Source: Bacilli bacterium
GTDB taxonomy: Bacteria; Bacillota_I; Bacilli_A; RFN20; CAG-826
Assembly (NCBI GenBank): GCA_024408505.1
Contig: JAKSUZ010000006.1
Location: 2,073 to 66,072 of the forward strand
Reading direction: 5' to 3'
Length of the DNA stretch: 64,000 nt
Shown here: positions 1-15,917 of the stretch, piece by piece
How positions within the stretch are numbered: the first letter of the stretch is position 1
How the letters are laid out: each line of letters starts with the position of its first letter
The notes under the pieces: model-generated
Seen by the model: only the letters and a program-made list of their open reading frames with translations
What the model was told of the DNA's origin: nothing
The model's database searches: none
Made by a program: the position numbers and the translations under genes

Positions 1-3000
1 ATAAGCGATGCTTCCTCACGCTTCTTAATTAATAAAGAATTAACAGGCGAAATTACTAAAAAGATTGATTTGGGCTTTATGAAAAAAGCTTATGCAAACT
101 TAAAACGTGATTATCAAGATTTATTAAAATTAGCAAAAGAATTCTACGAAAGAGACTTTGTTGATAGCGGGAATATTATTGAATTAATTGATGACATAAA
201 TAATGATTATGGTGGTCTTGCAAGCGTTTATCTTGGTGATATTAAGGAAAAACTGATCGCATTAGCGAATCGTCTTTCAATTACACCAAATAATATATTA
301 ACAAGCGCTTTTGCTTATACTCTATCTCGATTTATCAATAATGATAAAGTCTATTTCACTTTTACAAATCATGGTCGTGATTTAGATGGTTTAGATGCCG
401 CGCTTGGTATGTATGTCAAAACTATTCCAATTGTTTTGAATACAAATAATAAATCAGTGGATGATTATCTAAAAGGATCTTCAAAGCACATTTTAGATGC
501 AATGAAGCATAGCGTTTTCCCATTCCGCTTAGTTGCAAGTGAATATCACCTTAAGAAAAATGTTTCGTTTGAATATAATACGAATCTAAATGATGTGACT
601 GGTGTCAGTGAATCGATTTATTATAAACCAGATAAAGAAAAGCACATTTCTCATGTATCGCATTTATTAGGCGTTATCAATGATTATCAAAATGGTTATG
701 TATTAAGCATCGAGCATTCTAGTAGATACACAAAAAATACCATAATTCGTTTCCTAAAAACATATCAAAAAATTATTATTGGCTTATTAAATAATAAAGA
801 ATTAAAGGACATCAACTACACTCTTGATGAAGATCTTAGTGTCTTTAATAAAATTAATGCGACTTCAACTAAACTTGTTTATCACGATATTTTAGAAGCC
901 TTTAATAATTCGCTTAAGAAATACCCAAATAACACATTAGTAACTTATCTTGATAATAAATATACCTATAAAGAAGGCGCGAAATGGATTAATAATCTTA
1001 CTAATAAACTAAATAACATTCCTCAAGGTAGTAATATAGCTATCTTAACTCATCGTTCTCACTATTATTTATTAACAGCCCTTGCGGTTCTTAATCATGG
1101 TTCTACTTATGTTCCAATTGATGATACTTATCCTGATGAACGAATTAAGTTTATGCTTAAAGATAGTGGGGCGAAATGTGTCTTAGTTACTAGCGAAATG
1201 GTTTCTCGCATTAAGACATTGACTGATATCCCGTTTGTTAATGTGAGTGATATTAGGGCAATTGGAGAACTTAAGCCTCTTAAGATAAACACTAACGAAG
1301 ATAGCGTGGCCATAATTTTATATACCTCTGGCACAACGGGAACACCTAAGGGTTCTTTAATTACTCGTAGAGCCATTCTTAATCTCGCTGAATGGTATGT
1401 TCATGATACGAAATTAACAAATCATGATATTTATTCAATGTATGTATCATATGTTTTTGATATGCATACTTTAGGATTCTATACGCCTTTAATTGTCGGC
1501 GCATCGTTAGATATTGTACCGTTCAATGTTCGCTTAAATCTTAATGATCTTAATAAACATTTTAATAAAGTTGGTGGCACTCATACATATATGACCGCTC
1601 AAGTAGGTAAATTATATGCGGAAGGCGGATATAAAACACCAATTAAACTTCTTTGTTTTGGCGGTATGAAGCTTGGCGAACTTCACGCGCCTAATTCAAT
1701 TGGAGCGTTTGAATCATATGGTCCAACTGAAAACTTAGCGATTACGACTTCAATCTTTGCAAATAAACGAATTCATCATTCATCTATTGGTAACTTCATT
1801 CATAACGTTAAAGGATATATCTTAGATCATGAACACCGTTTAGTGCCTTATGGCGCGATGGGTGAACTCTACCTATCCGGTTATCAACTCGCGAAAGGAT
1901 ATCTTAATCGAAAGAAAGAAAACGAAGCGGCTTTCTTTAAAAATCCATTTACTAACGAAAAAGGATACGAAGTCTTATATAAGACAGGTGATATTGTTAG
2001 ACTCTTACCTGATCATACCTTAGGGATTATTGGTCGCGTTGACTCTCAAGTCAAGATTCGGGGTAACCGCGTAGAATTAGGTGAAGTAGAAACATGTATT
2101 AAACAAGTTGATGGTGTTATCGATGTGACGGTTCAAACTATTCAAGTTAATGGTAATAATGAACTTGTTGCCTATGTTGCGACTAAAGACAAAGCCATTA
2201 AAGATAAAGTTATTAAATATGTCGCGAGCCATAAGCCCGCTTATATGGTTCCTAGCCACGTGATGGTTTTAGATAAGATTCCGCTTAACGTTAATGGCAA
2301 AGTTGATAAACGTGCGTTACCGAAAGTAGATGTCAGTAGTAAGAAAGTTAGCTATGTTGCTCCAACTAATGATGTTGAAAAGACTATTTGTGATGCCTTC
2401 GCGAAAGTCTTTAATTTAAAACAAGTTGGTGTGAATGATGATTTCCTTAGTCTAGGTGGTGATTCACTTACCGCAATTCGTCTATTAGCGTTCTTAAAAG
2501 ATTATCAATTAACCGCTGCGGATATTACTAACTTAAAAACTCCAAGACTCATTAGTGAGAAGATTTCGGGTAGTAAGTCATTAAGTCTTGATTTAAATAA
2601 ATATAGTCTCGTAACTGGTGCGCCTTTAAGTGAACAACAACTTAATATTTATCTTGATATTGTAATGAATAAGAAGGTAGATGCCTATCTTATTCCGCTG
2701 GTAACAAATTTAGAAAAATATTCATCTAATGATGTTATTAAAGCTTTAGATAAAATGTTTGAAATTCACCCTATTCTGAAAGGATATGTTGATAATAAAA
2801 ATGACACTCCTTTTATTAAAATAGGTAAAAAACCAAACACGAAAGTTGTCGACAATAACACAAAAATCGATTTAACTAAATTCTTATCGACACCATTTGA
2901 CATTTATCACGAATTATCTCGTTTCTTATATTGCAAAGAGAACAAAACTTTATATGCCGTGTTCCATCATATGATTTTTGATGGTCTATCAACCTTAGTG

Positions 3001-6000
3001 TTCTCTAATCACCTCTTAGCGATCCTTAATAAAAAGGAAGTTGAACCTGATCTTGCTTTCTTAAAAGCCAGTGCCTTTAGTCAAGAAATTAAGAAAACAA
3101 ATTTATACCAAGAAGCCGAAATATTCTATGAAAAAGAATTCGTTGATAGTGAAAAGATTGTGGAGCCTCTCCCGGATATTGGTGAACATCAACCAAGTTA
3201 TACTTCTTTAAAATTAAAAGTTGATCAAAAGCGCATTGATAGTTTTATTAAACGACACGAAATTACCAAGAACGTGCTCTTTACTAGTGTCTTTGCCTAT
3301 ACGCTTTCACGCTTTACTAATACCAATGATGCTTATTTCACAATGATTGAAAACGGGCGAAGTCGTCTTGATGCGCGTGAGGCGATTGGAATGTTTGTCA
3401 ATACCTTACCTTTACTTATTGATTGCTCGAATGATTCAATTGCTAACTTTATTAAGAAGAGTAAAGAAAAGATTTATCAAACCATTAACTATAATTTCTA
3501 TCCGTTTAGATTATTAAATAATAAATATCGAATAAGCGCGAACGTTCTCTTTCAATATCAGCCCGGTGTTAAGCAAACCAAATCGATGAACGATAAGGGA
3601 TTTATTGGTAAAGATGATTTAGCCAATCGTAATGATTTTAACGCTGAACTTTCGTTCGTTCTATCTAGTTCTGATACTGATAATTATCTTGATGTGATTG
3701 CGGGCAAAAAATACGCATCTTCAACTATCAAAAAAATTCTCTTAACCTATGAGCGGATTCTTTGCGAATTTTTGATTAAGGATAATTTAAAAGATATTAA
3801 TTATACACTTGCTGAAGATATTAAAGTTATTGATGGAATCAATTCAACAAGAACCAAGCTTAAATATCACGATATTTTAGAAGCTTTTAACAATTCTTTG
3901 AAAAAGCATCCTAACCATATATTAGTAAGTTATTTTAATGAAAAATATACTTATGCTGAGGGCGCAAAATGGATTAATAAATTAGATGATATCTTTATTA
4001 GCAAAAAGATAAAACGCTACTCCCATATTGCTGTCTTCCCGCATCGTAGCCACTATTATCAATTAGGAGCATTAGCGGTGGAAAATTATAATTCTGCTTA
4101 TGTACCAATTGATGAAGCGTACCCAAACGACCGTATTAAATTTATGATTACGGATACAGCAGCCAGCGCCATCTTGGTTACTAATCAAACATTAGACCGT
4201 GCGAAAGAAATAATTAAAGATTTTAAAGTTAAACCATTAATTATCAATATGAGCGAAGTAATAATCACTAACCAAGATAAAGTTAAACCATTAACTGCAA
4301 AAATTGATCATCAGGATGTTGCTTGTATTCTTTATACTTCTGGTACAACTGGGATTCCAAAAGGAGCGTTAATTCTTCATAAAGGAATTATCAATACCGC
4401 ACAACGCTATGCTACCCAAGTTGCTAATTTATGTGATACGGATAAAGTCACTCTTTATGCCTCAGTTGGTTTTGATGTTCATATGGAAGCTCTCCATTCA
4501 CCAATTTTTGCCGGCGCTACCTTAGACATCACACCTACTAATGTGCGTTTAGATCCAATTGCGTTACTTAAACATTTTGAAACTCACCATGTTACACATG
4601 TCCACTTACCGACCTCTTTAACTAAAATTTTAATTAATCACGAAATTCCATCTTGTATGAAACAAATGGTTACTGGTGGTGCACCGTTAGGAAAAGTAAA
4701 TACCAATCTTCCTTGCGATTTTAAAGATGTGTATGGACCAACAGAAGCAACAATTAACGTTGCCGCTATTCGCGTGAAGGATAAAATTGATCCGACTAGT
4801 GTAGGTAAACCATTAATGAATTCTCGTTGTTATATCCTTGATAAGGAACATCGCTTAACCCCGTTTGGTGGTGTGGGTGATTTATATCTATGTGGTTACC
4901 AAGTATGCAAAGGTTACCTTAATCGCGATAAGGAAAATAAAGAAGCGTTCTTTAAGAACCCTTTCACTAATGAAGAGGGCTACGAAAGAATATATCGTTC
5001 AGGTGACGTTGCGCGTTATTTACCTGATGGAACGATTGCCTACCTTGGTCGGAAAGACTCACAAGTAAAGATTCGTGGTAATCGCGTTGAATTAGGCGAA
5101 ATTGAAGTTACAATTAGAAAAATTAAAGAGGTAAAAGATGTTACTGTTCAAGTCATTGTTAATGATGGTAACAAAGAACTTGTCGCGTATGTCGTTTCTT
5201 CAAATAAAGATATTAAAAATATCATTATTAATTACGTTAGAAATAACCAACCTGAATATATGGTTCCTAGCCACGTGATGGTTTTAGATAAGATTCCGCT
5301 TAACGTTAATGGCAAAGTTGATAAACGTGCGTTACCGAAAGTAGATGTCAGTAGTAAGAAAGTTAGCTATGTTGCTCCAACTAATGATGTTGAAAAGACT
5401 ATTTGTGATGCCTTCGCGAAAGTCTTTAATTTAAAACAAGTTGGTGTGAATGATGATTTCCTTAGTCTAGGTGGTGATTCACTTACCGCAATTCGTCTAT
5501 TAGCGTTCTTAAAAGATTATCAATTAACCGCTGCGGATATTACTAACTTAAAAACTCCAAGACTCATTAGTGAGAAGATTTCGGGTAGTAAGTCATTAAG
5601 TCTTGATTTAAATAAATATAGTCTTGTAACTGGTGCGCCTTTAAGCGAACAGCAACTTAATATTTATCTTGATATTGTAATGAATAAGAAGGTTGAATCC
5701 TATCTTAACCCACTTGTTTTTAAATATGATAAATATACATCGAATGATATCAAGAATGCTCTAACTAAATTGTTTAAGTGTCATCCGATTTTAACTGGTT
5801 ACATTGAAAATGATTCTGATAATAATCCTTATTTAAAAATCGGCCATACACCTATGATTGAGGTTCTAAAGGATTTAAGGAAAAATGATATTAATAGTTA
5901 TATCGCTGAGCCTTTTAACATTCATAAATCATTATCACGTTTCCTTATTGATGAGAATAGCAAAACTTTATATGCGGTGTTCCATCATATAATTTTTGAT

Positions 6001-9000
6001 GCTTTATCTCGTGCTGTTTTTAGAAATCACCTCTTAGCGATCCTTAATAAAAAGGAAGTTGAACCTGATCTTGCTTTCTTAAAAGCCAGTGCCTTTAGTC
6101 AAGAAATTAAGAAAACAAATTTATACCAAGAAGCCGAAATATTCTATGAAAAAGAATTCGTTGATAGTGAAAAGATTGTGGAGCCTCTCCCGGATATTGG
6201 TGAACATCAACCAAGTTATACTTCTTTAAAATTAAAAGTTGATCAAAAGCGCATTGATAGTTTTATTAAACGACACGAAATTACCAAGAACGTGCTCTTT
6301 ACTAGTGTCTTTGCCTATACGCTTTCACGCTTTACTAATACCAATGATGCTTATTTCACAATGATTGAAAACGGGCGAAGTCGTCTTGATGCGCGTGAGG
6401 CGATTGGAATGTTTGTCAATACCTTACCTTTACTTATTGATTGCTCGAATGATTCAATTGCTAACTTTATTAAGAAGAGTAAAGAAAAGATTTATCAAAC
6501 CATTAACTATAATTTCTATCCGTTTAGATTACTTAAGAATAAATATAATTTATCCGCGAATATTGATTTCCAATATCAACCAAATAACTTTAGTAGTCAT
6601 CTGGATACGAACGCGCATAATTTACTTTATCGTGATAACTTAAAGAAACGAACCGATTTAATTAGTGATTTAGCGATTGTTGCTACCGATAACGAAATTA
6701 ATATTGTTAGTAGCAAAAAATATGCCCAATCGACCATTAAAAAGATGTTATCTACCTATGAGCAGATTCTTAACGAGATTTTAGTGAAGAATTCTTTAGC
6801 GGATATCAATTATACTCTTAATGAAGATCTTAGTGTCTTTAATAAAATTAATGCGACCTCAACTAAACTCGTTTATCACGATATCTTAGAAGCCTTTAAT
6901 CATTCACTTAAGAAATATCCGAATAATACTTTAGTGAGTTACCTCGATACTAAATATACATATTCTGAAGGCGCGAAATGGATTAATAATCTTACTAATA
7001 AACTAAATAACGTTCCTAAGAAGAGCAATATCGCAATCCTTACTCATAGATCCCACTTCTATCTATTAACGGCCTTAAGCGTTTTAAATCATGGTTCCGC
7101 CTATGTTCCAATTGATGATACTTATCCGGATGAAAGAATTAAGTTCATGCTTAAAGATAGTAATGCGAAAGTAGTGTTAGTCACAGATGAAACCATTAAC
7201 CGTGTTAAGAAACTTACTAATATTCCTGTTATTAATGTAAGTGATATTAAATCATCAGGAACACTGAAACCGTTAAAGACTAACAATAAAGATGATTTAG
7301 CCGCGGTCATTTTATATACCTCAGGGACAACCGGAACACCAAAAGGTACGATTTTGCCTCGGAAAGCGATTTTGAATTTAGCGGAATGGTGCGCGCACTT
7401 CACCTCTTTAACTAAAACTGATGTATTCGCGTTATATGTTTCAATTGGTTTTGACGTCCATATTGGTTCGCTTTATTCCCCTTTATTAACCGGGGCAAGT
7501 TTAAACGTTATTCCTACGGATATCCGTCTTGATCCAAACCAGCTTATTAATTATTTTAACCAATATCATATTAGCCATGTCTTCTCGGTTACCGCTTTAA
7601 CCAGAATCCTTCTTGATAATCAACTACCAAAAGAATTGCGGGTCATGTTTACTGGTGGTGAAGCCTTAGGCGAAGTTAATCAACATCTTACTTGTTCTTT
7701 ATATGATGCTTATGGACCAACTGAGTCGACGGTCTTATCAACAGTAATTGATGTAAAAAAGAAAATATCAGCTTCTAGTGTCGGTCATCTTTTAGCAAAT
7801 ATTAAAGGTTACGTCTTAGATCATGAGCGGCGTCTCGTCCCTTATGGCGCGATGGGTGAACTCTACCTATCCGGTTATCAACTCGCGAAAGGATATTTAA
7901 ATCGAGATAAAGAAAATAAAGAAGCTTTCTATCTTAATCCATTCTCGAAAGAAAAAGGTTATGAAAGAATGTATAAGACGGGAGATATCGTTAGATACTT
8001 ACCTGATGGGACCTTTGGCTTTATTGGTCGAGTGGACTCTCAAGTTAAAATCCGTGGTAACCGTGTTGAACTAGGTGAAGTAGAAGCAACCATTCGCGAA
8101 GTTAAAGAAGTTAAAGATGTCACAGTTCAAACTATGATTAATAATAACAATAAAGAACTTGTCGCCTATCTTGTCTCTAGTGATAAAGCCATTAAAGATA
8201 AAGTTATTAAATATGTCGCGAGCCATAAGCCCGCTTATATGGTTCCTAGCCACGTGATGGTTTTAGATAAGATACCGCTTAATGTTAATGGCAAAGTTGA
8301 TAAACGCGCGTTACCGAAAGTAGATGTCAGCGCGAATATTCATTCTTGTCAACCACCTCGTAATAAATTAGAACAAAGAATGGTTGATTGTGCGAAAAAT
8401 TTATTTAAACTTGCCTCACAAAAAATAGGAATCGACACAAACATGAATAATCTAGGCTTAGATTCATTAATAGCATTACGCTTGTCACTTCTTTATAAGG
8501 CACGCGCTAATATTAGTATTGGCGCTATCGATATTATCAATAATCCAACTATTGAAAAGCAGATTGCGTTTGTTAAAAAGTTCACATATCAACCGATTCA
8601 TACCTTCAATTTAAGCAAGGGCAAAAAACATTTATTCTTTGTCCACCCTGGACAAGGTGGTAGTGAATCATATCAAGAATTAGCAAAATTACTAGGAAAG
8701 AATGTTTCCTTCTCGGTTTTTGAGCATTACAATTTATTCCACCTTAATCAAAGAATCAAAGGAATTAAAAACATTGCGAAATATTATGTTAAATTATTGA
8801 AAGCGCAGCAACCGCATGGGCCATATTATTTAGGCGGTTATTCTTATGGTGGCAATATTGCATATGAAATGGCGGTTATTTTAGCTAAAGATCATGAAGA
8901 AGTTAGGAACCTTTTCTTGCTCGATTCAGCTACAAGAAGCGTACCGCTATCAAAGGAAGAGATGATTAAATTAGTCGATGCGGAAACAAAAAATATCACT

Positions 9001-9318
9001 ATCAAACAAAAGAATTTAACTAATGAAATGGCAACTGCTTATAAGACAATTTCGTTATTTGTATCCGAAGATTTAAATGGCTATTCACCATCTCGATATG
9101 ATGGAGAAGTAACATTCTTTAAGGCTAACAAAAAGAATAAAAAGATTGCGGGGTTACCAAAGTCAACATACCAAAAAATTTCTTCATCTAGAAACTTATA
9201 CTTAAAGAAAAAAGCAAATTTTATAATATGCGATATTGATGCTTCGCATGATGAATTGTTAGACGAAAAACCGAGAAACAAAATTGCAAAAATTATTGTA
9301 AAGCAACTTCTTAATTAA
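1..9318 (+). CDS. Non-ribosomal peptide synthetase, 5'-partial: (C)-A-T-C-A-T-C-A-T-TE
   Basis: Frame is open from base 1, so the true start lies upstream. Three A domains (YTSGTTGxPKG, YGPTE, Y[K/R][T/S]GD, QVKIRGNRVELGE, NGKVDK), three carrier motifs (LGGDSL, LGGDSL, LGLDSL), C-domain motifs HHMIFDG (2965-2985) and HHIIFDA (5983-6003), thioesterase GYSYG (8836-8850). Confidence 0.97.
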   Translation: MSDASSRFLINKELTGEITKKIDLGFMKKAYANLKRDYQDLLKLAKEFYERDFVDSGNIIELIDDINNDYGGLASVYLGDIKEKLIALANRLSITPNNILTSAFAYTLSRFINNDKVYFTFTNHGRDLDGLDAALGMYVKTIPIVLNTNNKSVDDYLKGSSKHILDAMKHSVFPFRLVASEYHLKKNVSFEYNTNLNDVTGVSESIYYKPDKEKHISHVSHLLGVINDYQNGYVLSIEHSSRYTKNTIIRFLKTYQKIIIGLLNNKELKDINYTLDEDLSVFNKINATSTKLVYHDILEAFNNSLKKYPNNTLVTYLDNKYTYKEGAKWINNLTNKLNNIPQGSNIAILTHRSHYYLLTALAVLNHGSTYVPIDDTYPDERIKFMLKDSGAKCVLVTSEMVSRIKTLTDIPFVNVSDIRAIGELKPLKINTNEDSVAIILYTSGTTGTPKGSLITRRAILNLAEWYVHDTKLTNHDIYSMYVSYVFDMHTLGFYTPLIVGASLDIVPFNVRLNLNDLNKHFNKVGGTHTYMTAQVGKLYAEGGYKTPIKLLCFGGMKLGELHAPNSIGAFESYGPTENLAITTSIFANKRIHHSSIGNFIHNVKGYILDHEHRLVPYGAMGELYLSGYQLAKGYLNRKKENEAAFFKNPFTNEKGYEVLYKTGDIVRLLPDHTLGIIGRVDSQVKIRGNRVELGEVETCIKQVDGVIDVTVQTIQVNGNNELVAYVATKDKAIKDKVIKYVASHKPAYMVPSHVMVLDKIPLNVNGKVDKRALPKVDVSSKKVSYVAPTNDVEKTICDAFAKVFNLKQVGVNDDFLSLGGDSLTAIRLLAFLKDYQLTAADITNLKTPRLISEKISGSKSLSLDLNKYSLVTGAPLSEQQLNIYLDIVMNKKVDAYLIPLVTNLEKYSSNDVIKALDKMFEIHPILKGYVDNKNDTPFIKIGKKPNTKVVDNNTKIDLTKFLSTPFDIYHELSRFLYCKENKTLYAVFHHMIFDGLSTLVFSNHLLAILNKKEVEPDLAFLKASAFSQEIKKTNLYQEAEIFYEKEFVDSEKIVEPLPDIGEHQPSYTSLKLKVDQKRIDSFIKRHEITKNVLFTSVFAYTLSRFTNTNDAYFTMIENGRSRLDAREAIGMFVNTLPLLIDCSNDSIANFIKKSKEKIYQTINYNFYPFRLLNNKYRISANVLFQYQPGVKQTKSMNDKGFIGKDDLANRNDFNAELSFVLSSSDTDNYLDVIAGKKYASSTIKKILLTYERILCEFLIKDNLKDINYTLAEDIKVIDGINSTRTKLKYHDILEAFNNSLKKHPNHILVSYFNEKYTYAEGAKWINKLDDIFISKKIKRYSHIAVFPHRSHYYQLGALAVENYNSAYVPIDEAYPNDRIKFMITDTAASAILVTNQTLDRAKEIIKDFKVKPLIINMSEVIITNQDKVKPLTAKIDHQDVACILYTSGTTGIPKGALILHKGIINTAQRYATQVANLCDTDKVTLYASVGFDVHMEALHSPIFAGATLDITPTNVRLDPIALLKHFETHHVTHVHLPTSLTKILINHEIPSCMKQMVTGGAPLGKVNTNLPCDFKDVYGPTEATINVAAIRVKDKIDPTSVGKPLMNSRCYILDKEHRLTPFGGVGDLYLCGYQVCKGYLNRDKENKEAFFKNPFTNEEGYERIYRSGDVARYLPDGTIAYLGRKDSQVKIRGNRVELGEIEVTIRKIKEVKDVTVQVIVNDGNKELVAYVVSSNKDIKNIIINYVRNNQPEYMVPSHVMVLDKIPLNVNGKVDKRALPKVDVSSKKVSYVAPTNDVEKTICDAFAKVFNLKQVGVNDDFLSLGGDSLTAIRLLAFLKDYQLTAADITNLKTPRLISEKISGSKSLSLDLNKYSLVTGAPLSEQQLNIYLDIVMNKKVESYLNPLVFKYDKYTSNDIKNALTKLFKCHPILTGYIENDSDNNPYLKIGHTPMIEVLKDLRKNDINSYIAEPFNIHKSLSRFLIDENSKTLYAVFHHIIFDALSRAVFRNHLLAILNKKEVEPDLAFLKASAFSQEIKKTNLYQEAEIFYEKEFVDSEKIVEPLPDIGEHQPSYTSLKLKVDQKRIDSFIKRHEITKNVLFTSVFAYTLSRFTNTNDAYFTMIENGRSRLDAREAIGMFVNTLPLLIDCSNDSIANFIKKSKEKIYQTINYNFYPFRLLKNKYNLSANIDFQYQPNNFSSHLDTNAHNLLYRDNLKKRTDLISDLAIVATDNEINIVSSKKYAQSTIKKMLSTYEQILNEILVKNSLADINYTLNEDLSVFNKINATSTKLVYHDILEAFNHSLKKYPNNTLVSYLDTKYTYSEGAKWINNLTNKLNNVPKKSNIAILTHRSHFYLLTALSVLNHGSAYVPIDDTYPDERIKFMLKDSNAKVVLVTDETINRVKKLTNIPVINVSDIKSSGTLKPLKTNNKDDLAAVILYTSGTTGTPKGTILPRKAILNLAEWCAHFTSLTKTDVFALYVSIGFDVHIGSLYSPLLTGASLNVIPTDIRLDPNQLINYFNQYHISHVFSVTALTRILLDNQLPKELRVMFTGGEALGEVNQHLTCSLYDAYGPTESTVLSTVIDVKKKISASSVGHLLANIKGYVLDHERRLVPYGAMGELYLSGYQLAKGYLNRDKENKEAFYLNPFSKEKGYERMYKTGDIVRYLPDGTFGFIGRVDSQVKIRGNRVELGEVEATIREVKEVKDVTVQTMINNNNKELVAYLVSSDKAIKDKVIKYVASHKPAYMVPSHVMVLDKIPLNVNGKVDKRALPKVDVSANIHSCQPPRNKLEQRMVDCAKNLFKLASQKIGIDTNMNNLGLDSLIALRLSLLYKARANISIGAIDIINNPTIEKQIAFVKKFTYQPIHTFNLSKGKKHLFFVHPGQGGSESYQELAKLLGKNVSFSVFEHYNLFHLNQRIKGIKNIAKYYVKLLKAQQPHGPYYLGGYSYGGNIAYEMAVILAKDHEEVRNLFLLDSATRSVPLSKEEMIKLVDAETKNITIKQKNLTNEMATAYKTISLFVSEDLNGYSPSRYDGEVTFFKANKKNKKIAGLPKSTYQKISSSRNLYLKKKANFIICDIDASHDELLDEKPRNKIAKIIVKQLLN
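2242..2678 (+). repeat. NRPS internal repeat A, copy 1 (copy 2 at 5257-5693)
   Basis: 437 bp at offset 3015; by eye only 3 synonymous differences, all near the 3' end. Covers A-domain C-terminus, T domain and C-domain start. Confidence 0.9.
3007..3513 (+). repeat. NRPS internal repeat B, copy 1 (copy 2 at 6025-6531)
   Basis: 507 bp, apparently identical, offset 3018. Covers the C domain just after the HHxxxD motif. Confidence 0.9.
5257..5693 (+). repeat. NRPS internal repeat A, copy 2
   Basis: Near-identical to 2242-2678. Confidence 0.9.
6025..6531 (+). repeat. NRPS internal repeat B, copy 2
   Basis: Apparently identical to 3007-3513. Confidence 0.9.
8185..8330 (+). repeat. NRPS internal repeat C (matches 2191-2336)
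   Basis: 146 bp with about 3 mismatches, offset 5994; A-domain C-terminal subdomain shared by modules 1 and 3. Confidence 0.85.
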
Positions 9319-10306: not shown

Positions 10307-10428
10307 AAGTCTAATTTATCATAGAACCCCCCGTCAACTTTTGCACTTTGCAAAAATATTGTTTATTTGCCAAAAAGTTGTACCATAGTACTAACTCAAC
10401 CGAGTACAAAAAATCGGGTACACATCAT

Positions 10429-10458
10429 TTAGCCTCTTTTTGTTAAGTAACTAATAAG
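10429..10458 (+). repeat. 30-bp direct repeat, copy 1
   Basis: TTAGCCTCTTTTTGTTAAGTAACTAATAAG, exact copy at 10808-10837. Confidence 0.95.
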
Positions 10459-10494
10459 CCTATTACGGTTATTTTTAAGTGGAGGTAGATAATT

Positions 10495-10764
10495 ATGAAA
10501 AGAGACTTAAAAAGTATGGTGGAATTAAAAGAATTTCTAAAAAATCCCTCACCGAATTTAAAAGTTCCGGTGTATACTGAAAACGAAGATGGAGCTAAAC
10601 CAGTGAAAAATACAAAAGATAGAGTCACATTGAAGCAAGTCGTTGATATGATCCAAAAAATGGATGATAAAATGGATGCTGGTTTTAAACAAGTAAATGC
10701 CCGTCTTGATTACATCGTAGGCGTAAATAATCTAAAAGATCTTCCAAAAACAAAAAGTAAGTAA
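10495..10764 (+). CDS. Small hypothetical protein with short C-terminal coiled coil
   Basis: GGAGGT ribosome-binding site upstream of ATG; 89 aa; heptad-like QKMDDKMDAGFKQVNARLDYIV. Confidence 0.75.
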   Translation: MKRDLKSMVELKEFLKNPSPNLKVPVYTENEDGAKPVKNTKDRVTLKQVVDMIQKMDDKMDAGFKQVNARLDYIVGVNNLKDLPKTKSK

Positions 10765-10807
10765 ATTCTATATTTACTTTGTAAATATAAAAAAATAAGT
10801 GAGGAAA

Positions 10808-10837
10808 TTAGCCTCTTTTTGTTAAGTAACTAATAAG
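10808..10837 (+). repeat. 30-bp direct repeat, copy 2
   Basis: Exact copy of 10429-10458; here it overlaps a weak GAGG/CCTC hairpin with T-tract. Confidence 0.95.
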
Positions 10838-10917
10838 GAGGATATTGTGCATATGCACTTTATCTTTCCTAGGCGCCTACCCTTTATCTCCTTGGTGCTG
10901 CAACAAAGGAGGAGAGC

Positions 10918-10983
10918 GTGCTCGATACCATTTTGCTGATGGTAGTATTGACGTTACTGATTGAGTTAATCTCGCGAAGGTAA
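10918..10983 (+). CDS. Putative type I toxin, 21-aa hydrophobic peptide MLDTILLMVVLTLLIELISRR
   Basis: AAAGGAGG SD 5 nt before GTG; single hydrophobic helix with basic C-terminus; TAA TGA stops; anti-SD TCTCCTT upstream. Too short for the ORF track. Confidence 0.7.
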   Translation: MLDTILLMVVLTLLIELISRR

Positions 10984-10985
10984 TG

Positions 10986-11021
10986 AAAAAAGGGCGGTCA
11001 TCCCGTCCTCAACATTAAGCG
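10986..11021 (-). ncRNA. Putative antisense antitoxin sRNA (minimum extent; may read through over the toxin ORF)
   Basis: Lies downstream of a near-consensus minus-strand promoter; minus-strand hairpin AGGACGG-GATGA-CCGCCCT followed by a T-run. Boundaries inferred. Confidence 0.45.
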
Positions 11022-11026
11022 AAATA

Positions 11027-11055
11027 ATGATAGCACCTCGTAGGAGTCTTGTAAA
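11027..11055 (-). promoter_or_regulatory. Sigma-A-type promoter, antisense to the small ORF
   Basis: Minus strand reads TTTACA-17 nt-TATCAT with extended -10 TG (TGcTATCAT). Confidence 0.65.
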
Positions 11056-11069
11056 GGGGCGAGTGCCGA

Positions 11070-11090
11070 CCCGGATCCTTTGGGTCCGGG
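11070..11090 (+). terminator. GC-rich hairpin closing the putative toxin mRNA
   Basis: CCCGGATCC-TTT-GGGTCCGGG, 9-bp stem with one G-U; poor U-tract, so it may be a stabilising hairpin. Confidence 0.5.
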
Positions 11091-11103
11091 GTTAAATATT
11101 AGT

Positions 11104-13161
11104 ATGTATAAATTAGTAAATGTAAGTAAATCGTATGGTAAGGGAATTAATTCAATTAACGTTTTAAAAAGCGTTTGCCTTACTTTTCCACAAGTAGGCT
11201 TGGTGTCAATTTTAGGCAAGTCAGGAAGTGGAAAATCTACACTTTTAAATATCATCGCTGGATTAGATAAACCAACCAATGGGAAAATCTACTTTTCTAA
11301 CAAGGATTTGAATGGACTAAGCAAGAAAGAAAAGAAGATTTATCAAAATCAAATTATTGGTGTATTGTTTCAGCACTTTAATTTATTTAATGATTTAAGC
11401 TGTCTTGAAAATGTAATGCTCCCAAGTTTAATTAACGGAGTTAATAGAGAGGATAGTAAAGTAAGAGCCACTAATCTATTTAAACAATATCATCTTGAAC
11501 ATTTAATGAATCAACGGTATGAAACTCTATCTGGAGGCGAAAAACAAAGAGTAGCGTTATTAAGAGCGTTAATAAATAGACCAAGAATTATTATCGCAGA
11601 TGAACCTACTGGCGCGCTAGATAGTCAAAATAGTGTTTTTATTATGAAAGAATTAAAAACTCTAGCAAAGGATCACCTAGTTATCGTTGTTACACACAAC
11701 GAAGCACTAATTAAAGATTATGAAGATTATCGAATAAATATTGTTGATGGTAAGACCAGTGAATTTAAAGCCGTTTTTAACGAAAGATATGAAGTAAAGC
11801 ATAGCGGTAAAATAAAATTCAGTGCGGTTACTCGTTTTATTAAATTGCATCTATTTAAACATAAAGTAAGAAATATTATTGCAGCAAGCTCAATTATGTT
11901 CTCTTCACTTTGTTTGTTAGTGTCTTTAGGTTACATCAATGGTGCAAAGACATCAGTTGATAATTATAAAAAACAATCGCTTTTATACACTTATGCGACG
12001 GTTGCAAAGAAAACAAAAATAGAAGTCCCTGATTCACCGATTATTATTTCAAAACTAACAAGGCCTTCGTTAGAAGAAATTAGTTTTTTAGTTGACAATA
12101 TTTCATCTTTAATAGTTGCGAATAACTATCAAATTGTTTTTCCCTCTGTGCCATCATTTAATTTTGATAATAAAAATATTAGTGACATTGAATTTTCACC
12201 AGTTTATGATTTTTCATTATTTCAAAATTTATTTACTAGCGGGGTGTTACCACAGCAAGATAATTTTCTTGAGGTTGTGGTAAATGAAGAATTCGCGCAT
12301 CACTTCGGTTACTCAAATCAAGAAATAATTAACCATGTATTTAATCTTGATTCCTTAAGCGACATAAATAGTAAAAGTCCTTTAGGAAAAATCATTAAAG
12401 ATGAAATTTATTTTAATCAAAAAGTAAAAATTACTGGTGTAGTAAAAGAATTTGCTTATTTAAATATGCCCCGCGTATATTATCCATATTTAGGTCTTAA
12501 AAAAATATTAAGCAATTTCATTTTGCTAAATTATTCAAAAGAAGTAGGATATAACGTTTCAATTGAGGAAATGATTAGTGACGCTAGTGAAGAAGATGCA
12601 AATAGTAGCTATTGCTATAGTTTATTTGTTAATGATCTTAACGAAGTTAATCAACTCTATGATTTTAAAAAAGAATATGATCAATTAGGAACTTTTGATA
12701 TCGCTTCAACTAGTTATACTATCTCTTCGTCCTATCAAGAGATGACTGACATTATTTCAACCTCATTAATTGCGTTTGTGATTATTGCTATTGTTGGAGC
12801 GATTTTTATTATTGTTATTACCGCGTATTCTAACTTCACACAGAATAAAAAAGAGAGCGCTATTTTATCAGTTCTTGGAACTAATAAATTAGCTATCTTC
12901 AATATCTTCAATATTGAGAATCTAATTGTGGCTGCAGTTGGTATTTTTTCTTCTTTCTTATTATCAATGCCGATTACACTAATCATTAACTCGATCATCG
13001 AGAAATCATTTCATCTAAGTAATTTGATTGCCGTCCCACTTTTATCATATGTTCCATTTGTGATTTTGATTGTTGCGTTTGTTTTATCAATATTAGCGAC
13101 TGCCATCCCGTTTTTATTTTACGAGAACGGTTTTATTGTTGAGGAGCTTAAAGACGAATGA
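11104..13161 (+). CDS. MacB/FtsX-type ABC transporter, fused ATPase-permease
   Basis: Walker A GKSGSGKS, LSGGEKQR, ADEPTGALD, C-terminal FtsX-like TM segments. ATG 11104 (MYKLVNVSKSY) preferred over TTG 11080, which lies in the hairpin. Confidence 0.92.
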   Translation: MYKLVNVSKSYGKGINSINVLKSVCLTFPQVGLVSILGKSGSGKSTLLNIIAGLDKPTNGKIYFSNKDLNGLSKKEKKIYQNQIIGVLFQHFNLFNDLSCLENVMLPSLINGVNREDSKVRATNLFKQYHLEHLMNQRYETLSGGEKQRVALLRALINRPRIIIADEPTGALDSQNSVFIMKELKTLAKDHLVIVVTHNEALIKDYEDYRINIVDGKTSEFKAVFNERYEVKHSGKIKFSAVTRFIKLHLFKHKVRNIIAASSIMFSSLCLLVSLGYINGAKTSVDNYKKQSLLYTYATVAKKTKIEVPDSPIIISKLTRPSLEEISFLVDNISSLIVANNYQIVFPSVPSFNFDNKNISDIEFSPVYDFSLFQNLFTSGVLPQQDNFLEVVVNEEFAHHFGYSNQEIINHVFNLDSLSDINSKSPLGKIIKDEIYFNQKVKITGVVKEFAYLNMPRVYYPYLGLKKILSNFILLNYSKEVGYNVSIEEMISDASEEDANSSYCYSLFVNDLNEVNQLYDFKKEYDQLGTFDIASTSYTISSSYQEMTDIISTSLIAFVIIAIVGAIFIIVITAYSNFTQNKKESAILSVLGTNKLAIFNIFNIENLIVAAVGIFSSFLLSMPITLIINSIIEKSFHLSNLIAVPLLSYVPFVILIVAFVLSILATAIPFLFYENGFIVEELKDE

Positions 13162-15917
13162 TTGTTCTAAAAAATATTAATAAACGATATAAGGAAAATG
13201 TAATCAGCAATTTTTCTTATTCTTTTCCTAATATTGGTTTAATCGCAATTTTAGGTGATAGTGGATCAGGTAAATCAACTTTGTTAAACATTATTAGCGG
13301 GGTTGATAGTGACTACACAGGCAATTTACGAATTGATGATATCAATATCAAATTACTTAATGAAATTGAAAATTCCACCTTCCGTTTGAATAACATTGGA
13401 TATGTATTCCAAGATTTTCGTTTACTAAATTTATTGAGTGTTTTTGACAATGTAATTTTTAATTTAGATGCGGCTTCATCTTTATCAAAAGATGCGAAGA
13501 ATAAGTTAGTAGATGATGCACTTAAATTTGTTGGTTTAGAAAAGAAAAAGAAAGTAGCGGTAAATAAATTATCCGGTGGTGAAAAACAGAGAGTTGCCAT
13601 CGCGCGTGCGATTGTGGGATCACCTAAATATTTATTATGTGACGAACCAACCGGAAACTTAGATGATAAAAATGCATTAGCGGTTTTTTCATTAATTAAA
13701 GAATATAGTAAAAATCATTTGGTAATACTTGTTTCGCACGATCAAGAAAAGACCATTCAATTCGCAGACGAAATTATTTATTTGAAAGATGGCAAAATTA
13801 ACCATATTGATAAACTTAATGAAATTAAACTAGGTGAGACTCCACAAATAAAAATTAATAAGAAAAGTAATATTTCATTATCTTGGGGATTGCGTTTTAG
13901 GTCAGGCAAGAAAAAAATCCAAGAAAAGAAATTTCGCTCTATTTTTACTAATTTAATTTCTTCGATTTCGCTTTTAGCGTTAGGGATTGGCGTTATTGTT
14001 ACAACTTCTTTACGAAATCAAATTATTTCATCCTTTGCGAATCTAATTAATCCAAATCAAATTATTGTCACGAAGAAAAGCAATAATCCGAACCCGTACA
14101 CTAGTTATATCTCGACTGATGAAACAGTAGTGAAGAAAATTGCAGATGAATATAGCGATTATATGTATGGAATGGGTGTTACTTACTTAAATAATTTTTC
14201 TCAGCATTTTCCTGATCGCGACCAAGTCTATATTGAGTTAAATGGAAGAAAAATTGTTCTACCTTCCTATCATTCAGCGAAATTTAATTCTTATGTATGG
14301 CAAGAAGAATGTACATCAGATGTCTTTTTTCCGACTCTAAAAGATAAACTTGAAATTAACGAAGTTGTGTTGGGTTTAACTTATAGCGATATGCGTAATT
14401 TATGTCGTCAATTAGGTTTAGCGGATGAAACCTATCAAATTCTTGGTAGTTATTTAGCGACACATAGTGTCCCACTCTATTTAGGCATTGATAATATGAG
14501 TTGGGAATATGAAAACGATATTGAATTTACTTTAAAAAGTGTATACCCATCTTCTGAACCGGAAATTTATCACACTGATAGCTTCTTTAATCAGCACGTT
14601 TTTGAAATTGAAGCACAAATGCCTACTACTTTAGATATTATGAGCGAACCAGAAAAGCCGTGGACACTTAAAAAGGTTTTTACTTTGCATCTAGCGGAGA
14701 CACCATCATATTTTGTCGAGAGCTTGCAATATGATAAAAAATACGATGATATTTTAATTGAAAGCGCACAAAACTTTTTAGAAGATTCGTGCATTGCCAC
14801 CGATACCTGTCCAAGCAATATCGTCTTTGTATTTACATTGGATAAAAATGCAGTTGATGTATCTGACATTATTACCTTTAAGAAAATAACTCCTAGAGTT
14901 AAAAGCTTTTATTTATCCACTATTAGTGGTTATCAAATGCACTCCTCAGGAATGATAATGGGATTTAGCAATAACATCGCCTTTTCTTTTGATGAGGATA
15001 AAGCGTTAGCGGTAGGTGATTATTTTTCAAAGCAAATCGAAGGTGATATGCAAAATTTTCCTGGCACCGCAATTGGAGGCATTACTCGCTTTAATCAAAA
15101 TCCAGTTTTATTTTCAAGCGATTTAGATCAAATCAGTGAAGGCGATTTGCCAAATAACTATAACGAAATTGTTATTTCAACCGGATTAGCGAAATACTTA
15201 GGAATTGAGAAACCACTATATGAAAATCTCTATTATTCAATTTATTCATCGACTTTAGAAGAAGTGATTCTTAATAAATTTAAAGTAGTTGGAATCGTTG
15301 AAGAAGAAAAGAACTATATTTATCATTATCCGTTATTTTCTATATCTTTCTTCCGAGATAAATTAGGAGTCTCTTCATTTAACTTAGTGCCGACAAGCAT
15401 GGTAATTAATCTATTAGAAGACACAAACATTGATTTATTGATGGCTGATCTCTCTTCTTCGTTTAAAGAATATAATTTTGCTTGTCCGCTTGAAGAAATT
15501 GGAGCTACCGTTGATGAAACAATGAACTATGTTACCAGTATTGCAATCATCTTTTCGTGTATTGCTTTAATTATTACAATTTTGTTATTAGCATTAATTA
15601 GTTATCTCAATACAATTGAAAGCAAAGGCGAAATTAATCTATTGAAACACTTAGGACATAATCATAAATCAATTAATGAATATATTGTTTCTCATTCACT
15701 AGTAATGAGCATCATTACAACTAGTATAGCAGTAGTCGAATTAATTATTTTCCAAATCTTTTTATCTTTCTTTTTAGGGAGTTTCTTTGGTACAACCATT
15801 TCTTTAACAATCAATGTATTACCGTTTTTCATTGTTATTATAGTGGGGATGTTATTACCAACCATTATTAGTTATTTAGTTAGCAATTTTACCTTAAGAA
15901 AAATGATGAAAAATTAA
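13158..15917 (+). CDS. MacB/FtsX-type ABC transporter, fused ATPase-permease
   Basis: GDSGSGKS, LSGGEKQR, CDEPTGNLD, large extracellular loop, C-terminal TMs; ATGA overlap with previous gene. Confidence 0.92.
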   Translation: MIVLKNINKRYKENVISNFSYSFPNIGLIAILGDSGSGKSTLLNIISGVDSDYTGNLRIDDINIKLLNEIENSTFRLNNIGYVFQDFRLLNLLSVFDNVIFNLDAASSLSKDAKNKLVDDALKFVGLEKKKKVAVNKLSGGEKQRVAIARAIVGSPKYLLCDEPTGNLDDKNALAVFSLIKEYSKNHLVILVSHDQEKTIQFADEIIYLKDGKINHIDKLNEIKLGETPQIKINKKSNISLSWGLRFRSGKKKIQEKKFRSIFTNLISSISLLALGIGVIVTTSLRNQIISSFANLINPNQIIVTKKSNNPNPYTSYISTDETVVKKIADEYSDYMYGMGVTYLNNFSQHFPDRDQVYIELNGRKIVLPSYHSAKFNSYVWQEECTSDVFFPTLKDKLEINEVVLGLTYSDMRNLCRQLGLADETYQILGSYLATHSVPLYLGIDNMSWEYENDIEFTLKSVYPSSEPEIYHTDSFFNQHVFEIEAQMPTTLDIMSEPEKPWTLKKVFTLHLAETPSYFVESLQYDKKYDDILIESAQNFLEDSCIATDTCPSNIVFVFTLDKNAVDVSDIITFKKITPRVKSFYLSTISGYQMHSSGMIMGFSNNIAFSFDEDKALAVGDYFSKQIEGDMQNFPGTAIGGITRFNQNPVLFSSDLDQISEGDLPNNYNEIVISTGLAKYLGIEKPLYENLYYSIYSSTLEEVILNKFKVVGIVEEEKNYIYHYPLFSISFFRDKLGVSSFNLVPTSMVINLLEDTNIDLLMADLSSSFKEYNFACPLEEIGATVDETMNYVTSIAIIFSCIALIITILLLALISYLNTIESKGEINLLKHLGHNHKSINEYIVSHSLVMSIITTSIAVVELIIFQIFLSFFLGSFFGTTISLTINVLPFFIVIIVGMLLPTIISYLVSNFTLRKMMKN

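Follow-up and report, generated by a model that had tools for sequence, protein, structure and literature searches.

What does the short GC-rich island upstream of an ABC transporter gene encode on contig JAKSUZ010000006.1 of an uncultured Bacilli bacterium (assembly GCA_024408505.1)? The window analysed here is the stretch of 64,000 nucleotides (nt) from position 2,073 to 66,072 of this contig (forward strand), taken from a genome of 1.23 Mb in 53 contigs that has approximately 30% GC content and is 86.7% complete. A preliminary description of the window had noted the island, and GC content is indeed 0.44-0.50 in 10850-11099 and approximately 0.25-0.33 in the flanks. The same description took a short open reading frame (ORF) within it, enclosed by complementary 5' and 3' segments, to belong to a type I toxin-antitoxin (TA) module. 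Judged by comparison of sequences, the unit at 10835-11095 (approximately 260 nt) is probably a chromosomal type I TA module of an undescribed family. The earlier inference is supported by relatives that show a coding ORF and compensatory changes in helices, and by the lack of any Rfam match. Beyond that description, the module is multicopy, has a second, paralogous family, carries a leader ORF behind a shared leader, and lies between this leader and unrelated downstream genes.

Positions 10840-11098 are present in this genome in three copies that are 100% identical and have different contexts (contigs C50, C23 and C3); the repeat unit spans 10427-11098 and includes an 89-codon gene. The genes on the 3' side of the three copies are an ABC transporter, a lipoprotein with pcrA and ligA, and rpsF-ssb-rpsR. 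Because copies of the module precede unrelated genes, a riboswitch, leader or attenuator of the downstream ABC transporter was rejected. The paralogous module, here called family B (the window copy belongs to family A), has three further copies (C1, C14 and C18), each behind the same 76-nt leader. It is built alike, from a 5' hairpin that contains a Shine-Dalgarno sequence (SD) and leader ATG, a long 5'-3' helix and a 20-codon hydrophobic ORF; an A-run and hairpin follow straight after the stop codon, and a minus-strand promoter lies beyond them.

A blastn search over 40 relatives found three family A copies (86-90% identity) and four family B copies in one genome (G001), and a single family A copy in another (G006, 72% identity). 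A covariance model made from family A was run over 151 genomes of the bacterial family and gave weak full-length matches in two more members of the genus, G005 (35.6 bits) and G003 (20.6 bits). Across those 151 genomes, full-length matches were confined to five genomes of the genus, the window's own genome included, and were absent from its members G004 (90% complete) and G002 (61% complete); two partial matches in other genera, covering no more than a hairpin, were left out of the count. The total is 16 copies: three of each family in the window's genome, three A and four B in G001, one in G006, and one divergent copy each in G005 and G003. Eleven distinct members were used for folding and leader-ORF comparisons, and 14 sequences for antisense signals, with the three identical family A copies of the window's genome counted once. 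An exact-pattern scan of a genome contig collection returned four stretches, all in two Bacilli metagenome-assembled genome records from horse faeces; the same kind of scan of a metagenome contig collection returned two, both chance matches without the module, and plasmid and phage collections gave no blastn match. Four metagenome runs of gut or faecal samples, each from a different study, also have contigs with variants of the module.

By its pattern of substitution, the peptide ORF evolves as coding sequence. The 21-codon frame lies where it had been placed, behind a strong SD (AAAGGAGGAG before GTG), and every member retains GGAG ahead of the start. The family A peptides are MLDTILLMVVLTLLIELISRR (window, GTG start), MLDTVLLLVVMTLLIELISRR, MLETILFLVLVILLIREISRK (TTG start), MSDTLILLILVLLLAIVIKG (ATG start) and MTQVIVLLLVIVILILVVR (TTG start); those of family B are MSDLIILLMLLYLIVSELSR and four close variants. 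The common plan is 19-21 amino acids (aa): the N-terminus is short and polar (M-L/S-D/E-T), a stretch of 14-16 residues with no charge follows, and the C-terminus is basic. By codon position (first/second/third), 8/4/13 columns vary in family A (4 sequences) and 9/1/11 in family B (5 sequences). Synonymous to nonsynonymous differences stand at 31:35 in the ORF frame versus 5:57 and 6:55 in the other frames for family A, and at 49:49 versus 27:67 and 3:91 for family B: about half of all codon differences are synonymous in frame, as against 3-29% out of frame. Start codons are exchanged among GTG, TTG and ATG across copies. In strain variants from the four metagenome runs, the differences listed (40 of 100) include, within 10918-10983, eight at third, six at first and none at second positions, and one variant changes the GTG start to TTG. 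Lack of ORF conservation had been named as a ground for giving up the TA interpretation; homologues keep the ORF, with a coding pattern of substitution.

The peptide could not be assigned to a named family in the preliminary description, and this still holds: there is no Pfam or NCBIfam match, and the sole protein relative is unnamed. No family in either library matches any form of the peptide at E ≤ 1 or E ≤ 10 in scans whose power is low for 20-aa peptides, and the same low power at 20 aa applies to the absence of matches to the Hok/Gef and Fst-type toxin families (Pfam for both, NCBIfam for Hok/Gef). A word-index protein search with the 42-aa in-frame form (see below) returned nothing. A full HMMER search of 1.84 billion representatives retrieved one unnamed 42-aa protein with 68% identity, which is an in-frame form of family B.

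The RNA that carries this ORF is structured on the plus strand. Positions 10847-11095 fold at -88.4 kcal/mol versus -71.2 ± 4.8 kcal/mol for shuffled sequences (z = -3.61; 0 of 200 as good). In the same test the minus strand stands out less clearly (z = -1.95; 6 of its 200 shuffles fold at least as well). The four collinear blocks by which the leader had been said to complement the 3' untranslated region (UTR) are found in place, all of them in the minimum-free-energy (MFE) fold, where they form a long 5'-3' clamp; the strong hairpin said to close the unit was also recovered (Table 1). Single-sequence folds give the same architecture, clamp included, in 11 of 11 distinct members.

Helices of the homologues carry compensatory changes, whose absence had been named as counting against the TA interpretation. 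For family A (7 sequences, including two divergent members), 40 of 78 pairs are changed on both sides, against 13.2 ± 2.9 in shuffled and 7-11 in slid controls, in an alignment that was fitted to the model and leans towards it. In alignment A4, both partners have changed in 15 of the 27 pairs of helices 2-5, those of the clamp, which remain 88.6-96.7% paired, and in 4 of the 8 pairs of helix 11, the closing hairpin. Family B was tested with 6 sequences aligned by MAFFT: 94.1% of cells pair and 15 of 79 pairs are changed on both sides, against 9.1 ± 1.8 shuffled (0 of 500 as high) and 2-7 slid. Its 31-pair clamp hardly varies (23 pairs invariant, 7 changed on one side), and its helix between ORF codons and 3' UTR has 6 of 13 pairs changed on both sides. 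The consensus helix between ORF segment 10930-10943 and the 3' UTR is not formed in the MFE structure of the window copy.

A known structured RNA (6S, signal recognition particle RNA, riboswitch or T-box) was rejected, as Rfam holds no match to the region. With Rfam 15, the whole window yields two tRNAs only at the gathering score, and 10700-11250 yields three chance-level matches at E ≤ 10 (9-19 bits against cut-offs of 64-80). A match to another RNA such as 6S had been named as a refutation; none appears, even at E ≤ 10.

Upstream, the module adjoins a leader that it shares with ordinary genes. This leader contains a 9-3-9 palindrome at 10769-10777/10781-10789 (TATATTTAC-N3-GTAAATATA), an A-run, and a small hairpin at 10801-10815 followed by T5, whose pairing is kept with changed letters in the G001 copies. 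It ends in AAGGAGG and then ATG, which are the SD and start codon where an ordinary gene follows. The leader precedes both module families and ordinary genes (other sites include C23:86904, C23:26480, C23:19504 and C53:23719), and in other species of the genus it also stands before many unrelated genes; it looks like a shared promoter/operator cassette, although no promoter of the sigma-70 type could be located in it.

Within the module the leader SD is folded into a 5' hairpin that is predicted independently in 11 of 11 distinct members folded; in A4, which was fitted to the model, 5 of 10 pairs of this helix (helix 1) are changed on both sides. In 10 of 11 distinct members the leader-ORF frame meets no stop codon before it reaches or passes the peptide start, and in the eleventh (G006) it ends 3 nt short of that start. 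Of the 22 cases given by the remaining two frames, 7 are open across the same stretch. How the two ORFs relate differs among copies: a 22-nt out-of-frame overlap in the window copy, a GTGA stop/start overlap in family B of the same genome, and an in-frame fusion in family B of G001 and in G003. Two of these relations arose by insertions or deletions that shifted the frame yet left it open. By analogy, the arrangement recalls mok/hok.

On the opposite strand, the convergent extended -10 promoter reported in the 3' UTR was confirmed (TTTACA-17-TATCAT with TG). It matches 10 of 12 consensus positions, and the scan of 10350-11250 reports no other promoter-like site on the minus strand. The hairpin and T-run beside the stop codon are present as well, and the predicted antisense RNA lies wholly inside the mRNA 3' UTR. 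On the minus strand of all 14 sequences, TGnTAnnnT is followed by a hairpin and then, 34-44 nt from the motif, by a T5-7 run, which predicts an RNA of 33-44 nt. The -10 hexamers vary (TATCAT, TATTAT, TAAAAT, TATACT, TATAAT), as do the letters of the stem.

Table 1. Features of the module and its leader, in window coordinates.
Feature	Position	Strand	Description
Shared leader	10762-10837 (76 nt; 10762-10834 up to the SD)	+	repeated in at least 13 places in the genome
5' hairpin	10835-10870	+	leader SD AAGGAGG (10835-10841) paired with UAUC/UUCCU (10861-10870); leader-ORF ATG (10853) apical
Leader ORF	10853-10939	+	28 codons (30 from GTG 10847); 22-nt overlap with peptide ORF, other frame
Clamp 5' arm	10872-10900	+	includes anti-SD CUCCU (10888-10892)
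Clamp pairs, outer	GGCGC 10872-76/GTGCC 11063-67; CCCTTTA(T) 10880-87/(G)TAAAGGG 11051-58	+	in MFE fold
Clamp pairs, inner	CTCCT 10888-92/AGGAG 11042-46; GGTGCTG 10894-900/TAGCACC 11031-37	+	in MFE fold
SD of peptide ORF	10905-10914	+	AAAGGAGGAG
Peptide ORF (putative toxin)	10918-10983	+	GTG start, 21 codons, MLDTILLMVVLTLLIELISRR
ORF segment paired with 3' UTR	10930-10943	+	pairs with 11014-11025; consensus fold columns 107-120 with 195-206
Predicted antisense RNA (antitoxin)	10985-11020	-	approximately 35 nt; short 5' tail and terminator hairpin; ends placed from promoter and T-run
A6 and 7-bp hairpin	10986-11009 (A6 10986-10991; hairpin 10991-11009)		on minus strand, hairpin then T6: predicted antisense terminator
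Antisense promoter	11027-11055	-	-35 TTTACA 11055-11050, 17-nt spacer, TG, -10 TATCAT 11032-11027
Clamp 3' arm	11031-11067	+	overlaps antisense promoter
Closing hairpin	11070-11090	+	9 bp, GC; no proper T-run after it (GGGGTTAAAT)

T1TAdb defines type I systems by a toxin mRNA of 150-400 nt, a small hydrophobic protein of 20-60 aa and a complementary antisense RNA. The structured unit of approximately 260 nt (between predicted ends) and its ORF of 19-21 codons with a coding pattern agree with the mRNA and peptide parts of that description. In the mechanism that we propose, the peptide would insert into the membrane and be harmful when made. With the leader SD held in the 5' hairpin and the peptide start region in local structure, little of it would be produced unless ribosomes on the leader ORF opened the start region, a coupling of the mok/hok type. 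The minus-strand promoter would yield an RNA of 33-44 nt, with a terminator hairpin exactly complementary to the mRNA hairpin beside the stop codon; first contact may be loop-loop between these hairpins, with pairing then spreading to a duplex of approximately 35-45 bp. RNase III, whose gene is present in the genome (204 bits against a cut-off of 166), would cut this duplex, and the cut would take off the 3' arm of the clamp together with the closing hairpin, leaving the mRNA to decay. In the closest copies, the freed anti-SD CUCCU may fold back on the SD. The SR4 antitoxin likewise makes first contact with an mRNA loop through its terminator loop, and SD pairing is altered there too.

The idea that the leader anti-SD sequesters the SD of the peptide ORF survives in part. 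In the full-length fold CTCCT pairs instead with the 3' AGGAG, and sequestration is predicted in 3'-shortened or nascent forms of the closest copies only: in the folding model of the three closest family A copies, the anti-SD shifts from AGGAG to the SD once the 3' part is lost or not yet made, and the probability that the SD is unpaired falls from 0.32-0.40 at full length to 0.00-0.04 when the RNA is cut at the antisense target or nascent (0.00-0.03 for the cut form). The corresponding values are 0.62 (full), 0.62 (cut) and 0.32 (nascent) in G006; 0.07 (full) and 0.06 (cut or nascent) in G005; 0.48, 0.32 and 0.26 in G003; and 0.03-0.44 (full) and 0.20-0.38 (cut or nascent), with no consistent direction, in five family B sequences. 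SD sequestration as a general switch was rejected, being predicted in 3 of 11 members. As modelled, the folds give no general answer on how the module works.

Several observations weigh against a type I TA module of this kind. In 3 of 16 copies the canonical ORF is not intact, yet the RNA signals are kept: ACG stands in place of the start codon, behind a weakened SD, in the copies on C60 and C1 of G001, and the family B copy on C57 of the same genome is frameshifted to 12 codons. Release and capture of the SD by the clamp is not predicted in G006, G005, G003 or the five family B sequences. Because the sequences are few and related, all belonging to a small number of lineages within a single genus, the shuffle tests make the results look more significant than they are. 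Both mRNA ends, like the antisense RNA, are predictions from sequence. No sense promoter was found near the leader by the scan, and the alignment shows no convincing -35/-10 pair by eye. Since the closing hairpin has no T-run and in most copies the SD of the next gene follows within some 10 nt, the RNA may run into that gene; in the G003 copy, a T-run does follow this hairpin. The -35 element lies inside the 3' clamp arm, and its conservation is therefore confounded. Of 12 sequences, the plus-strand hairpin is the stronger in 8 and the antisense hairpin in 3, with the two equal in 1, and G.U pairs number 13 in the plus-strand folds versus 6 in the minus-strand folds, a plus-strand G.U being an A.C mismatch on the other strand. 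This argues that the mRNA hairpin itself is under selection, with the antisense hairpin often carrying A.C mismatches. Finally, the predicted length of 33-44 nt falls below the range of the known antisense RNAs in T1TAdb (60-200 nt).

The coding and antisense evidence fits a harmless small membrane protein with a genuine cis-antisense regulator equally well, as it says nothing on toxicity, and the copies that lost the canonical ORF while retaining the rest of the module lean the same way. We consider this unlikely, in view of the many and in part identical copies in two paralogous families, the layered blocks to translation (5' hairpin on the leader SD, clamp and leader ORF) and the presence or absence of the module at one site. 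Type I TA loci typically show such features; small housekeeping proteins do not. The site in question lies upstream of rpsF: family A occupies it in the window's genome and in G006, family B in G001, the flank downstream being the same, and neither family is present there in G003 and G004, where the leader SD passes directly into the flank. The copy upstream of the ABC transporter is kept in place in the window's genome and in G001, and in strongly diverged form in G005. From the occupancy of the one site and the retention at the other, the module has been both gained or exchanged and long kept.

A toxin mRNA might also be controlled by its own folding and leader ORF, the minus-strand signals being by-products of clamp and hairpin with no antisense RNA made. 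The place of the -35 element within the clamp, the better hairpin on the plus strand and the terminator scan, which called no site in the region, are all in keeping with this; the scan did not call the hairpin because of an A.C mismatch on the minus strand of the window copy. We nonetheless hold it quite improbable, for the TG and -10 element recur at a fixed distance in 14 of 14 sequences while hexamer letters and spacer vary (the genome has 0.0018 TGnTAnnnT per base, so the probability that one falls by chance within a given 11 nt is approximately 0.02), and the run of 4-7 A before the hairpin, found in all members, has no evident role on the plus strand. Slightly less probable still is a structured, repeated and possibly mobile 5'-UTR element that acts on the downstream gene or its own spread and contains the ORF incidentally: the constant position between shared leader and gene, often some 10 nt before the gene's SD, the strong covariation and G.U pairs of the plus strand, and an rpsF site filled by A, by B or empty all suit it, but not the codon-position pattern and synonymous excess in the ORF frame alone in two families, the replacement of start codons by other start codons, the unrelated downstream genes (ABC transporter; lipoprotein with pcrA and ligA; rpsF) or the lack of an Rfam family.

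Returning to the type I TA module as the preferred reading, an extended form of it is offered tentatively, as a possibility that we would not favour at present. The module might be a self-contained cassette of approximately 265 nt with one kind of landing or exchange site, immediately after the SD of a shared promoter-leader and before the first gene, which can be essential (as in the rpsF-ssb-rpsR operon), so that host genes would be transcribed through the toxin gene. Its off-switch would be an antisense RNA of no more than 45 nt in the 3' UTR, guiding a cut that removes the 3' clamp arm; this would make it a "selfish 5'-UTR" type I TA system with the shortest antitoxin RNA known. In most copies the SD of the next gene lies within approximately 10 nt of the closing hairpin. 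Target-site duplication was considered and rejected: AAGGAGG flanks some family A copies and is not exact at the window copy or at the B copies, and the flanking repeats are more simply two functional SDs. As a separate observation, one metagenome contig (run X5) skips 10839-11102, with the leader joined to the start of the ABC gene by 22 other letters; the joint (depth 5.3, 23-letter side) may represent an empty site in a related strain, is too weak to count, and was not used.

Parts of this design are known from other systems. The hok/Sok loci of Gram-negative plasmids and chromosomes are alike in a highly folded toxin mRNA with 5'-3' pairing and in a leader ORF (mok) that overlaps the toxin ORF, a resemblance in design and not a sign of homology. 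The mRNA covers their antisense RNA over its full length, as is predicted for the module. Hok is approximately 50 aa long, unlike the module peptide of 19-21 aa; the module has no Hok match in Pfam or NCBIfam and no Sok match in Rfam, and its host belongs to the Bacilli class. Sok, according to T1TAdb, lies 5' of the ORF over the start of the leader ORF, whereas the antisense RNA predicted for the module lies 3' of the stop codon.

The bsrG/SR4, txpA/RatA, yonT/SR6 and bsrE/SR5 systems of Bacillus subtilis resemble the module in having a Gram-positive host. Their antisense RNA lies on the 3' side, as predicted for the module, and they act by duplex formation and mRNA decay, as proposed here. 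Their toxins are 30-60 aa long. No match was obtained to those antitoxin families of the TxpA/RatA-BsrG/SR4 group that Rfam holds. In bsrG/SR4 the contact of the antisense terminator loop with an mRNA loop is paralleled by the exact complementarity between predicted terminator hairpin and mRNA hairpin in the module. T1TAdb, in the text consulted, gives antisense RNAs of 100-200 nt for this group, which partly overlap the 3' end of the mRNA and mostly overlap the ORF, and describes no leader ORF; in contrast, the antisense RNA predicted for the module has 33-44 nt, lies entirely within the mRNA and reaches only as far as the stop codon.

Fst/RNAII (par) and SprA1/SprA1as share with the module a Firmicutes host and a short hydrophobic peptide with a charged C-terminus. 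Structures in the 5' part of their mRNAs block translation. Their antisense RNA, according to T1TAdb, is on the 3' side without ORF overlap, as predicted for the module, and differs in acting outside the overlap, on the 5' part of the mRNA. Pairing in trans between the predicted antisense RNA and this 5' part, SD and start region included, was tried and rejected for the module, being no better than shuffled in 9 of 11 members and at inconsistent sites; a mode of action like that of Fst or SprA1 is therefore not supported. AapA/IsoA of Helicobacter and Ibs/Sib of Escherichia coli are systems of Gram-negative hosts with no sequence or Rfam match to the module. Ibs peptides are approximately 19 aa long. 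The antisense RNAs of both are fully covered by the mRNA, as predicted for the module, and overlap the ORF, where they differ from it (T1TAdb); translation is governed by successive mRNA folds, according to PMC6733600 and PMC11228461. Among the layouts listed in T1TAdb, none combines a short antisense RNA wholly within the 3' UTR with a leader ORF. The literature searched describes no such module in this lineage; the thousands of predicted toxin ORFs tabulated in the supplements to T1TAdb and Fozo et al. (2010) were outside that search and might include a relative.

Several neighbouring features deserve mention. The 89-aa protein encoded upstream (10495-10764, plus strand) belongs to no Pfam or NCBIfam family and has 11 further tblastn matches in the same genome (32-99% identity), with paralogues on contigs C23, C3, C1, C53, C34 and C12, several of them behind the same 76-nt leader. 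As a third component of the module it was rejected: it adjoins only the three family A copies of this genome, and tblastn found it in 0 of 10 searched loci from other genomes. A remnant resembling its C-terminus precedes the family B copy on C14. Just after the family B copy on C1, a small ORF runs from approximately 8957 onward (locus L039; MQKLTDQELANVKVGE...), the start of which resembles what we take to be a bacteriocin-type secretion leader. Downstream of the window copy, 11104-13161 (plus strand) encodes an ABC ATPase fused to an FtsX-type permease (Pfam), with no SD of its own after the closing hairpin, and the next gene, 13158-15917 (plus strand), is alike by eye. An ORF of 3082 codons at 70-9318 (plus strand) has internal repeats that by eye resemble non-ribosomal peptide synthetase modules, which is unexpected in so small a genome. 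Upstream of rpsF, the species compared have in common a structured-looking 5' UTR (...TTTTGCG...CTCTTGCTATTA...TAATAGCCAGATGTCCAAAGGAGGG; 1380-1500 in loci L050 and L051 of G003 and G004, 1800-1920 in L003), which may be a ribosomal-protein leader.

The module escapes gene callers and family libraries entirely, and its sole protein relative is an unnamed cluster with a 42-aa representative, which points to a gap in annotation. A 2025 abstract states that type I systems are so far known only from Proteobacteria, Firmicutes and Tenericutes. If confirmed, the module would be a new type I TA family in an uncultured lineage of small-genome gut Bacilli. Its layout would join features described apart until now, with an antisense RNA of 33-44 nt embedded in the 3' UTR. 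The whole switch, at approximately 260 nt, would suit the work on RNA devices that now draws on type I TA parts (PMC12721322).

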